Assembly (NCBI GenBank): GCA_951406725.2
Contig: OX597836.1
Location: 42,656,001 to 42,720,000 of the forward strand
Source of the DNA: Octopus vulgaris
Lineage: Eukaryota
Direction: 5' to 3'
Length of the DNA: 64,000 nt
Shown: positions 1,462 to 63,234 of the stretch, in pieces
Layout of the letters: every line of letters begins with the position of its first letter
Numbering within the stretch: position 1 is the first letter of the stretch
Position numbers and translations under genes: made by a program
Notes under the pieces: model-generated
Told to the model about the DNA's origin: nothing
Databases searched by the model: none
Seen by the model: the letters and a program-made list of their open reading frames with translations, nothing else

Positions 1462-1605
1462 ATGGTGCACAAATGGAGCGAGCATTGCATTTTTATAATG
1501 CTTCCCTTGTTGAAAGACTAAAAGTTGTGACTGTAAACCCCAAGAAATCTGTGATAGCATACTGCAATGTAGCAAATGTCCTGTCTCAAAATTGTGGGAA
1601 GCACC
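1462..1605 (+). CDS. Gene A exon ([21 protein letters not shown]...CGKH)
   Basis: ttctttcaatag acceptor, gtacgt donor, homologous to 63091-63234. Confidence 0.88.
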
Positions 1606-61200: not shown

Positions 61201-63234
61201 TAAAATATAGAACTGTATAATATAAATAAATGAATTAAAATTTTGTTAAAATGTTATTAATGGTTAACAGAAGGATTTAATTAGGTTTCACGAGCTTAAT
61301 TACCTCTAGTTGATCTCATAAAACCATTATGTCTTTTCTCTGTTCAGGTGGGGTTTTTTTTTATTTATCCATATAAAGGTGATGTTTCTTTTTGCAGGTT
61401 ACTATGATAGATGTGAAAAACTACTGTCAGAAAATTTGGGGAAAATTCCATCACATCATCCCAGTTTAGCTATTATGTTAAATACAATGGGTATTAATTA
61501 TGAAAGGAGTGAGTATAATAGTTTTTATTTATTGTTGTATTTCGTCTTCCTTTTCTATTGGACTTTCCACTGTTTCCGAAGAAGAGCTCTGCTTGAAATG
61601 TAAAACCACCCTTCTTTCCTTTCCCAAGCTTTTGCTAATACTTTACATGTACCATGTCCTTGCATTGTTGTTTTTTTGTGTTTGTTCTTCATTTTTTTGG
61701 ATTTACTATATATATATATATATAAAAGCAATAAAGATTCAAGTTAATTTAAATGAATTTACTTGAATATGGTACCTAACTTAGATGCACCAAAAAAAAA
61801 ACTATACTGATTTAACAATACAGTAATGTGGGGTGATTATAAGCGAGAATGAAGCAACAAGAATGGATAGGTTTTTAGTACAATCGTTTCATACAAGGAC
61901 AGGTTTTATTAAAAGTTGCAAAATTACAGCATATAAACGTGTCCCGTACTCATCAGCTAAAATACATGTGAGTTCTCTAGACATCCTAGACAACCACTAG
62001 GATGTCTAGAGAACTCACATGTATTTTAGCTGATGAGTACGGGACACGTTTATATGCTGTAATTTTTGCAACTTTTAATAAAACCTGTCCTTGTATGAAA
62101 CGATTGTACTAAAAACCTATCCATTCTTGTTGCTTCATTCTCGCGTATATATATATATATATATAACACTAGGGTAATAAGAATTATAGGAATTATTATT
62201 ACCAGTGGCCTAGCACAGAAAAGAATTAGTCAATAGACTATATATTATTCACATAAAAATATCGTGTACATTAAAACACATTAAGAGGCTTCCAAATAGG
62301 AAAGCCTTGTGCTAGAAAGAGCAGTAGAAAACTCAAACCACTAACTAGGGATAAATTCTTGAAAGGAATGAAAATTAAAAACGTCTACCATTTCTACTGC
62401 TCTTTCTAGCACAAGGCTTTCCTATTTGGAAACCTCTTAATGTATTTTAATGTACACAATATTTTTATGTATATATATATATATATATATATATATATAT
62501 ATATATATATATATATGGGTGTCAAGATGACCTGTACCCCACAGCAGAAGTGTTAAGACTGAAACTTCTGGTTGTGTAAAGCACCCATATTGATGCCATG
62601 TAAAAGTATCCATGTGGCGACATGTAGAAGCACCTGTGTGGCGTCACAAAAAAGCCTCCAAGCAGTGTCACATAGAAGTTCTTGTGTGGTGGCATGTAAA
62701 AATGCCCATGTGGTGCTCATGTGGTCCCATGTAAAAGGATCCTGCACACTTTGTAAAGTGGTTGGCATTAGGAAGGGCATCCAGCCACAGAAACCATGCC
62801 GAATTAGACTAGGGTCTCGTACAGCTACCCAGCCTGCCAGCTCTGGTTGCATCATCCAACCTATGCCAGGAGAGACAATGGACGTAATATGGTGATGATG
62901 ATGATGATGATGATGGTAATGGAAATTTTTTTTTCTATTCTTTTTGTATTTTTTGACTTCAGTTTTAAATTTCTGATCCTGCCACATGTGTGAGGAGATA
63001 GTTACCTCCCTTTGCATTAACTGCCATCCAGAGGTCACCACATGTGTCTTCAGACATTTTTACCTGATATTTCATTTTCTCTTTCCACAGAAGGCTCACA
63101 GAATGACGAAGCGTTCATTTTTTATAATGCTTCTCTAAGGGAAAGAATGAAAGTTGCTCCAATAAATCCCAGATTATCTGTCGTGGCGAATTGTAATGTA
63201 GCAAAATTAATGTCTCGTGATCGTGGAAACCATG
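40035..63234 (+). CDS. Gene B (3'-truncated by window): STAND/NB-ARC-like NTPase + winged helix + TPR-like repeats (NLR-like); exons 40035-40214, 42746-43768, 44628-44784, 45825-45972, 56280-56389, 61398-61508, 63091-63234
   Basis: Seven exons join with GT-AG and consistent phases (0,0,1,2,1,1) into 624 uninterrupted codons. Motifs in order: FIGR, Walker A GLPYVGKT, Walker B ICIFDD, sensor-1 KIILILS, PLS..EG..LF, CGLPGLL (GxP), LSYFPGRF, LVEQGLI, VQELIR (MHD position), then TPR-like repeats (EAISYYEKAM, YNSMAYNYHMQGKY, LNTMGINY). Confidence 0.88.
41429..41935 (-). mobile_element. Tc1/mariner (maT/DD37D-like) 3' fragment
   Basis: WQQDS.P....TQ.WL...WPPN...N.LDY; CAGGGTG terminal next to a TA repeat. 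Confidence 0.72.
42746..43768 (+). CDS. Gene B large exon: Walker B, GxP, winged helix, helical linker
   Basis: 1023-nt open exon, atag acceptor, gtaaga donor. Confidence 0.92.
44628..44784 (+). CDS. Gene B exon (IATKASQILWLC...LTNLP)
   Basis: ctttcag acceptor, gtatga donor, phase 0 in and phase 1 out. Confidence 0.85.
45825..45972 (+). CDS. Gene B TPR-like exon (GLGGYMEAISYYEKAM...GKYVESL)
   Basis: tttgcag acceptor, gtaggt donor, phase 1 in and phase 2 out. Confidence 0.87.
48534..49057 (+). mobile_element. Non-autonomous Helitron with duplicated 5' segment
   Basis: A|TC start repeated at about 48686; terminal hairpin CTAGCACTATGACCCGGC-gtt-GCTGGGTCATAGTGCTAG. Confidence 0.7.
51825..52710. 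repeat. Compound (AAT)n microsatellite with higher-order AGT-AAT-GAT interruptions
   Basis: Direct reading. Confidence 0.95.
54376..54771 (+). mobile_element. Non-autonomous Helitron
   Basis: A|TC start; 3' end shared with 22329-22711; CTAG|T. Confidence 0.78.
54772..55443. repeat. Tandem repeat, about 138-bp unit, about 4.5 copies
   Basis: AAATGTTGAAGTGAATC...GCTATGCGAGTACATCTC units. Confidence 0.9.
56280..56389 (+). CDS. Gene B exon (SAEKGYSMVVKD...AYNLSLI)
   Basis: cttcatcag acceptor, gtaata donor; phases 2 and 1 exactly bridge the flanking exons; unique sequence between two microsatellites. Confidence 0.8.
60668..61183. mobile_element. Head-to-head inverted pair of a tRNA-headed element ending in a minimal hammerhead-like motif
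   Basis: Each arm has an A box (TGGCTTAGTGG 60936), a B box (GTTCGATTCC 60981) and (AAT)n, then GAYAY CTGATGA A GGCTG..CAGCC AAAAC GTT GTGTT (61091-61136 +, 60723-60768 -). Confidence 0.65.
61398..61508 (+). CDS. Gene B TPR-like exon (GYYDRCEKLL...LNTMGINYER)
   Basis: tttgcag acceptor, gtgagt donor, phase 1/1. Confidence 0.87.
61873..61962 (-). ncRNA. Mirror copy of the 62024-62114 hammerhead motif
   Basis: Left arm of the near-perfect palindrome 61843-62144. Confidence 0.72.
62024..62114 (+). ncRNA. Type I hammerhead ribozyme motif (intact core)
   Basis: TTTTAG-CTGATGA(62030)-GTACGGGACA...TGTCCTTGTAT-GAAAC(62097)-GATT-GTA-CTAAAA. Confidence 0.75.
63091..63234 (+). CDS. Gene B exon (GSQNDEAFIFYNASLRERMKV...RGNH)
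   Basis: ttccacag acceptor, gtaagt donor, paralogous to 1462-1605. Confidence 0.88.

Follow-up and report, generated by a model that had tools for sequence, protein, structure and literature searches.

A sixteen-copy octopus gene cluster for predicted NB-ARC-type STAND proteins with TPR sensors and an apparently homogenised switch exon

The stretch of Octopus vulgaris DNA considered here, 64,000 nucleotides of contig OX597836.1 (C23:42,656,001-42,720,000; hereafter the window), is repeat-rich animal DNA of 38% GC and contains parts of two genes, A (copy g15) and B (copy g16), which come last in a series of 16 paralogues with ten exons each. The cluster is real and, judging by spliced contigs of gene B, transcribed. 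Their products are, by structural modelling, NB-ARC-type STAND proteins, in which a nucleotide-binding domain (NBD), a first helical domain (HD1) and a winged-helix domain (WHD) are followed by an arm and a C-terminal TPR sensor, and are neither NACHT-LRR proteins nor NLRs in the strict sense. The exon of about 1 kb encoding most of the nucleotide-binding oligomerization domain (NOD) appears from sequence comparison to have been homogenised between old paralogues, separately in Octopus and in Argonauta. On balance the 16 tandem copies probably encode effector-less intracellular sensors of non-self or danger. What appears to be new is the exon-2 homogenisation in two genera and the effector-less family; the architecture itself was already known.

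Gene models and the extent of the cluster

An initial annotation of the window, made from its letters alone, had described two same-strand genes about 30 kb apart with a common 144-nt exon of phase 1/1 and 25 of 47 identical amino acids. That exon is exon 7 of both genes, bounded by AG..GT in each (25 of the 47 whole codons identical, 53.2%), and the distance is that from the end of the gene A stop codon at 10129 to the gene B ATG at 40035. The window holds exons 7-10 of A and 1-7 of B (Table 1), with exons 8-10 of B lying 4-9 kb beyond its end. The protein of about 856 residues foreseen from gene B with a gene A tail has its counterpart in a chimera of B exons 1-7 and A exons 8-10 of 856 codons, and with the neighbouring DNA the full-length products are of 856 (A) and 855 (B) amino acids. 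The suggested check of splice junctions gave a positive answer: across window positions 42600-46100, junctions 43768/44628 (exons 2-3) and 44784/45825 (exons 3-4) of gene B are joined GT..AG in contigs of all four runs, from four studies. That these runs are RNA is a guess, none being recorded as such, and it is the spliced contigs that count as evidence and not depth. Read support covers these two gene B junctions only; the remaining junctions of A and B agree with NCBI models. For exon 7 of gene A a donor at 1630 was considered and dropped, the separate exon 8 being conserved across other copies.

A genome search with exon 2 gave 16 intact-frame matches of 87-100% identity at 42.168-42.700 Mb of C23, plus two weak loci on C24 and C26. 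Mapping of all exons over 664 kb resolved 16 copies, g01-g16, over a span of about 580 kb and with near-constant exon lengths, and so the tandem expansion suspected from two genes is real. The ten minus-strand and six plus-strand copies face outwards from ~42.48 Mb. The weak loci (C24:10771058-10784653 and C26:35181671-35220925) each hold one distant paralogue, whose exons are ordered as in the cluster. The C26 type carries a long low-complexity C-terminal extension, as does the Argonauta protein P0017, and the C24 type has a divergent WHD region.

Frames are intact in 8 of the 16 copies. In four of the others a single base is inserted or deleted within one and the same poly-C run of exon 1 (one of these also has compensating shifts in exon 8), two are without exon 1 and two are frameshifted, in exon 4 or exon 8. 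Could assembly artefacts, haplotype duplication and homopolymer errors, account for much of the 14-copy expansion and its frameshifts? The shared poly-C run, the identity of some exons between copies (exon 9 of g02, g06, g07 and g09) and the presence in an intact O. sinensis model of the same one-residue deletion as in the second of g11's last exons speak for this, but no two of the 16 exon-2 sequences are identical (7-72 differences between any two) and at least three paralogues carry names of their own in O. sinensis; we give the artefact explanation little credence.

Several features of individual copies deserve mention. Copy g11 has two intact tandem last exons (C23:42514770-42515090 and 42515328-42515645), 81% and 77% identical to that of gene A; the O. 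sinensis model P0003 matches the second, and alternative C-termini are possible. In g14 a short duplicate of the exon 2 start with its acceptor (C23:42594786-42594842) precedes exon 2 by 1 kb. Fragments resembling LINE, Gypsy and helicase sequences (labelled by eye) are repeated along with the copies. The NCBI O. vulgaris model P0005 has 94 retrotransposon-like residues fused to its N-terminus and exons are skipped in several models from the same assembly, so that the public annotation cannot be relied on for this cluster.

Predicted fold and class membership

The protein folded was P0004, the O. sinensis orthologue of gene A (96-99% identical to it). From a 90-row alignment AlphaFold2 gave a model with a predicted local distance difference test score (pLDDT) of 90.9 and a predicted template modelling score of 0.87, replacing a first fold from 8 rows in which the NOD was poor (pLDDT 61). 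In the model a five-stranded P-loop domain, a helical domain and a winged helix ending at about residue 332 precede 22 helices (336-798) forming some ten helical hairpins. Foldseek ranks the STAND-TPR protein PH0952 (PDB 6MFV) first, at E 2.7e-10, with SAMD9, Apaf-1, Avs3, CED-4 and ZAR1/plant NLRs also present among many TPR proteins. With VIA, residues 2-339 align to the wheat resistosome with Z 22.8 (root-mean-square deviation, rmsd, 4.0; 295 aligned) and to CED-4 with Z 21.9 (rmsd 3.7; 334 aligned), and a profile search over the NOD positions finds PH0952 at 3.8e-44, AfsR at 5.5e-39 and Roq1 at 1.9e-23. TPR_12 scores above the Pfam cut-off in all five proteins scanned. Profile search, model, Foldseek and VIA thus agree on the STAND NTPase with TPR that had been read from the DNA. 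A homo-trimer prediction for residues 1-330 scored 0.39 against 0.31 for a control and is not used as evidence.

The motif names RNBS-C, RNBS-D, sensor-1 TxR and WHD 'MHD' His are applied here as in the NB-ARC literature. Gene B has Walker A, Walker B, RNBS-C, GxP and RNBS-D in that order. In P0004 Walker A (GxxxxGKT) is at 48-55 and Walker B (IFDD) at 112-115; among relatives the Walker Gly is kept in 70 of 73 rows, the Lys in 69 of 73 and the Asp in 64 of 87, and the GxP proline, P204, is conserved in 87 of 90. Of the full ordered STAND motif set at first credited to gene B it is the order that survives and not the fullness: the sensor-1 Arg column has Ser (ILS at 146-148 of P0004; relatives mostly have T-S or T-R, with Arg in 38 of 87) and the WHD His column has Gln (322 of P0004; His in 41 of 88 relatives).

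Membership of the STAND superfamily is indicated by the P-loop NBD with its GxP helical domain and WHD, by the Walker motifs, and by the arm and repeat sensor; the effector domain at either end that is general, if not universal, in the superfamily is absent. The NOD is nearer to NB-ARC than to NACHT, judging by relatives (see below), by structural matches, which are NB-ARC, and by atlas neighbours, which are mostly NB-ARC/nSTAND; the sensor-1 TxR and WHD His of the NB-ARC clade are missing. No NACHT match was found at E<=0.1 in five proteins, a genome-wide NACHT search had no signal at the cluster, and instead of the LRR of a NACHT-LRR NLR there is an all-helical TPR solenoid. As in diversifying receptor clusters, there is tandem expansion, turnover and recombination.

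Pfam was tried on single exons and on whole proteins, with sub-cut-off NB-ARC/ATPase matches only. A genome-wide PF00931 (NB-ARC) search gave no match and missed the cluster itself, and is too insensitive to show absence. The Pfam searches of the genome yielded two NACHT loci and no NB-ARC locus, both counts being lower bounds. One NACHT-bearing locus (L111:1-2016, minus strand; C19 ~45.02 Mb) is an open frame of at least 672 amino acids with NACHT above cut-off and a leucine-rich tail that looks LRR-like by eye, without a Pfam LRR match, and is a candidate bona fide NLR in octopus; another (L110:1126-3519, plus strand; C17 ~46.06 Mb) has NACHT with an NWD1-like winged helix and is an NWD1/2-like gene.

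At the N-terminus the octopod proteins start 9-23 residues before the FxGR glycine, and no CARD, death, TIR, HEPN or coiled-coil domain is encoded. Leaders are of 46 residues or fewer in 58 of 73 aligned rows, some of which may be cut models. Type-C copies, g01-g14, have an in-frame stop 12 nt before the ATG; the gene A ATG follows a possible acceptor, so that an upstream coding exon is possible there. An amyloid-type leader was considered and rejected, the leader by eye not being conserved between A, B and Argonauta. Near the C-terminus a pattern search finds CxxC in 20 of 90 alignment rows, one of them doubtful.

Homogenisation of exon 2

Between g16 and three other copies synonymous divergence (dS) is 0.09-0.13 in exon 2 and 1.2-1.3 in exons 3-10. 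The near-identity extends only shortly into the flanking introns and has sharp edges (Table 1), gene B being only 67-80% identical to other copies in its remaining exons; in exon 1, which encodes Walker A and part of the NBD, the proportion of synonymous differences (pS) between A and B is 0.48. A shorter sub-tract is common to g16 and g13, and the g16-type tract of g13 is also present in the O. bimaculoides B protein. In Argonauta, where the evidence is from two protein models and not DNA, the pair is 99% identical in exon 2 (4 differences), 41% in the tail and 52% in exon 1. Trees of the two partitions conflict accordingly: that of the tail joins Argonauta B with octopus B (96/89), that of exon 2 joins Argonauta A with Argonauta B (98/100), and in approximately unbiased tests against swapped topologies, on 9 of 16 rows, each topology is rejected on the other partition (p 1.6e-7 and 7.7e-5). 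The near-identity of exon 2 has likely come about through gene conversion.

The simplest cause is length, since at 1 kb, the others having 110-321 nt, exon 2 alone would be long enough to go on recombining, and the Walker A exon was not homogenised. The bolder reading is selection for co-assembly: proteins with differing sensors would need compatible NODs for mixed rings in a combinatorial receptor network. The same exon being homogenised separately in two genera while the tails keep the old A/B split would suit this, as would the fact that exon 2 encodes most NOD surfaces and that exchange has been recent and in places directional, as with the g16-type tract. However, exon 1, with Walker A, escaped in both genera, and tract edges that amount to the exon plus short intron flanks are what a length-limited neutral process predicts; we regard selected homogenisation as quite unlikely.

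Table 1. Exons of genes A (g15) and B (g16) and probable conversion tracts, in window positions
Feature	Start	End	Strand	Remarks
Gene A exon 7 (coding), TPR region	1462	1605	+	144 nt; matches O. sinensis model P0004
Gene A exon 8, TPR region	1714	1825	+	112 nt
Gene A exon 9, TPR region	6050	6314	+	265 nt
Gene A exon 10 with stop codon; last helices, conserved CxxC motif	9809	10129	+	
Gene B exon 1, coding part: start ATG, ~20-residue leader, FxGR motif, Walker A	40035	40214	+	Start agrees with NCBI models P0003, P0004 and P0006
Homogenised tract: 96 bp intron, exon 2, 23 bp intron	42650	43791	+	92-95% identity with every one of the 15 other copies, ending abruptly on both sides
Gene B exon 2: rest of NBD (Walker B), HD1 (GxP), WHD, first arm helices	42746	43768	+	1023 nt
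Sub-tract common to g16 and g13	43083	43172	+	8 sites in a row (43097-43133) where only g16 and g13 agree
Gene B exon 3	44628	44784	+	157 nt; spliced contigs
Gene B exon 4, TPR	45825	45972	+	148 nt; spliced contigs
Gene B exon 5	56280	56389	+	110 nt
Gene B exon 6	61398	61508	+	111 nt
Gene B exon 7	63091	63234	+	144 nt

Among other features of the window are a 185-residue reverse-transcriptase-like fragment between the two genes (20208-20762, minus strand) and long (AAT)n/(AT)n arrays at 51824-52563, inside gene B intron 4, and 25607-26163.

Mosaicism and selection

The exons of g01-g14 are mosaic, 7799 of 14760 between-exon site pairs being incompatible, and within exon 2 incompatibility climbs with distance from 15 of 141 pairs to 363 of 961. 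Gene A compared with the 14 type-C copies is itself mosaic, with pS of 0.03-0.25 in exons 1-5, 0.10 in exon 10 and 0.44-0.79 in exons 6-8, from which it seems that the central TPR exons resist homogenisation. Within g01-g14 the ratio of non-synonymous to synonymous differences per site (pN/pS) stands at 0.39 for exon 2, at 0.69 for exons 3-10 and at 0.85-0.94 for exons 7-8. For the tails of A and B the corresponding divergence ratio (dN/dS) is 0.27.

The initial annotation had proposed such ratios for the TPR exons, and diversifying selection confined to these exons did not emerge, pN/pS being below 1 and a site model significant in both halves of the gene. That site-model result, significant in both halves under recombination, was rejected as evidence for positive selection.

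Taxonomic range

A word-based search of 1720 longer candidates gave 14 matches, all from octopods (O. vulgaris, O. sinensis, O. bimaculoides and Argonauta hians), named 'uncharacterized' by NCBI and with Pfam labels for TPR only; this bears out the cephalopod origin first proposed for the DNA. Argonauta has two paralogues, O. bimaculoides one and O. sinensis three, against 16 here (the counts for other species being lower bounds), which is not the pattern of one-to-one housekeeping orthologues. A profile of the exon-2 region reaches further, to 89 cluster representatives at E<=0.001 among 1.84 billion. Names obtained for 19 of 30 checked representatives come from Argonauta, bivalves, abalone, crinoids, sea urchin, a hemichordate, coral (an Acropora protein) and sponge, with no vertebrate or insect among the 19. 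In 32 relatives a domain scan put NB-ARC above cut-off in 11 and NACHT in 3, with HEPN_DZIP3 in 2 and the bacterial BTAD in 2.

The family is not, then, specific to cephalopods as had been suggested; going by these matches the architecture is wide among invertebrates and the octopus-specific part is the expansion. Nor is the architecture new: NB-ARC-TPR proteins have been reported from corals (PMC10236652) and placozoans (PMC6321704), and as Apaf-1-like homologues from amphioxus and Nematostella (PMC2246300). For the octopus cluster itself, or for conversion of its NOD exon, no description was found in the open-access literature, and the undescribed status is not proven; for six LOC identifiers that literature yielded no citing paper, LOC115223562 being known only via an Argonauta protein name.

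What might the cluster do?

The proposal of an immune role draws on analogy and on the evolutionary pattern, with pN/pS higher in the tail, and highest in its central exons, than in exon 2, and at that strength a role in sensing non-self or danger within cells is a little better than an even prospect. In STAND proteins a closed ADP form is opened by ligand and then oligomerises (PMC6468293). By extension from that biochemistry, the octopus proteins would be held off in a closed ADP form by arm/sensor contacts; ligand in the TPR groove would release autoinhibition, letting the NOD open and load ATP, and opened protomers would assemble into a ring. Because no effector domain is encoded, the ring would have to signal via a separate adaptor. 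As to history, the A/B duplication would predate the Octopus-Argonauta split, a third type, C, would have multiplied within the Octopus lineage to give 14 mosaic copies, and gene conversion would have kept the NOD exon alike while sensor exons diverged.

Several observations weigh against this proposal. Octopus proteins score only 15-19 bits with Pfam NB-ARC (cut-off 23.5), and this miss, with the absence of both the sensor-1 Arg and the WHD His, makes it uncertain that they switch normally between ADP and ATP. In this assembly half of the copies have broken frames, and inspection of the cluster turned up no effector or adaptor gene. No exon has pN/pS above 1, and the site-model test (our own M1a/M2a script; 2dlnL 22.4 for exon 2 and 13.0 for the tail) is confounded by recombination.

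A non-immune function would accommodate some of this. STAND-TPR proteins could be sensors or scaffolds with a metabolite, protein-quality or developmental role, following MalT/AfsR logic, with growth by neutral unequal crossing-over and most extra copies drifting or dying. The closest solved relatives do include the transcription-type STANDs PH0952 and AfsR; purifying selection acts on A, B and the singletons of C24 and C26, all of them old, as the A/B tail ratio and the kept exon structure of the singletons indicate; and the broken copies and the want of pN/pS above 1 are as expected. Against this, rapid turnover, mosaicism and raised pN/pS in central TPR exons suit receptor families, and relatives carry HEPN_DZIP3, a domain reported to be linked to defence in coral and oyster NOD proteins. 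We judge a non-immune function unlikely, if worth keeping in mind.

The missing switch residues prompt another possibility, that these are degenerate switches, constitutively open scaffolds or decoys that, by CED-4-like logic, are held by an inhibitor rather than switched by nucleotide. The model fits open states better (rmsd 4.8 to CED-4, 5.4 to the ZAR1 resistosome and 10.7 to the apoptosome) than resting Apaf-1 (22.9). Yet the GKT of Walker A, the Asp of Walker B and the GxP motif are all preserved, and predicted conformations are not a reliable guide to state; this reading seems to us very unlikely.

If the sensor proposal is right, conversion may even have been selected in octopods to maintain a shared oligomerisation module beneath many TPR sensors, with mixed rings feeding one adaptor in a Pfam-invisible NLR-like branch. 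This combinatorial system is a distinctly doubtful extension; if true, a branch of NLR-like immunity in invertebrates has been overlooked. Little is known of intracellular immune sensors in cephalopods, and the cluster is a concrete candidate receptor set, from a family overlooked by the Pfam route. It also draws attention to a broader family of effector-less NB-ARC-TPR proteins among invertebrates, and to the question of how these might signal.

Comparison with known systems

The best Foldseek and NOD profile match, PH0952 with MalT (PDB 6MFV), shows the same succession of NBD-HD-WHD, TPR-like arm and TPR sensor. In contrast to the octopus cluster, these are prokaryotic transcription regulators with a DNA-binding effector domain (PMC6468293), they are encoded by single genes, and identity is 13%. 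Apaf-1 and CED-4, and ZAR1 and Roq1 of plants, share the AP-ATPase-type NOD fold (VIA Z 21-23; Roq1 E 1.9e-23), but the octopus sensor is TPR and not WD40 or LRR, there is no CARD, CC or TIR, and the sensor-1 Arg and MHD His are lacking.

Bona fide animal NLRs are NACHT-LRR proteins (PMC3879445). They too belong to the STAND superfamily and have clustered expansions in molluscs, such as the NACHT arrays reported from pearl oyster (PMC9646362); the octopus proteins, having neither NACHT nor LRR, are not members.

Closer are the invertebrate NB-ARC-TPR proteins, with an NB-ARC NOD, C-terminal TPR and lineage-specific tandem expansion, one of them (from Acropora) being among the sequence relatives. 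As described, these come with CARD, death, DED, TIR or HEPN effectors, whereas the octopus proteins have a leader of ~20 residues only and fall below the Pfam NB-ARC cut-off. Gene conversion in coral arrays is reported to be rare (PMC10236652), unlike the exon-restricted conversion likely in octopus.

Fungal NB-ARC-TPR and HNWD NLRs (het-z, het-d/e/r) are non-self receptors with fast turnover and intergenic exchange, and differ from the octopus proteins in that the latter have no effector domain or conserved amyloid-like leader. Exchange in the fungi is reported to homogenise and shuffle sensor repeats (PMC13449251). The octopods suggest the reverse: concerted evolution, twice repeated, is limited to the switch exon, sparing the sensor exons and leaving them to diverge.

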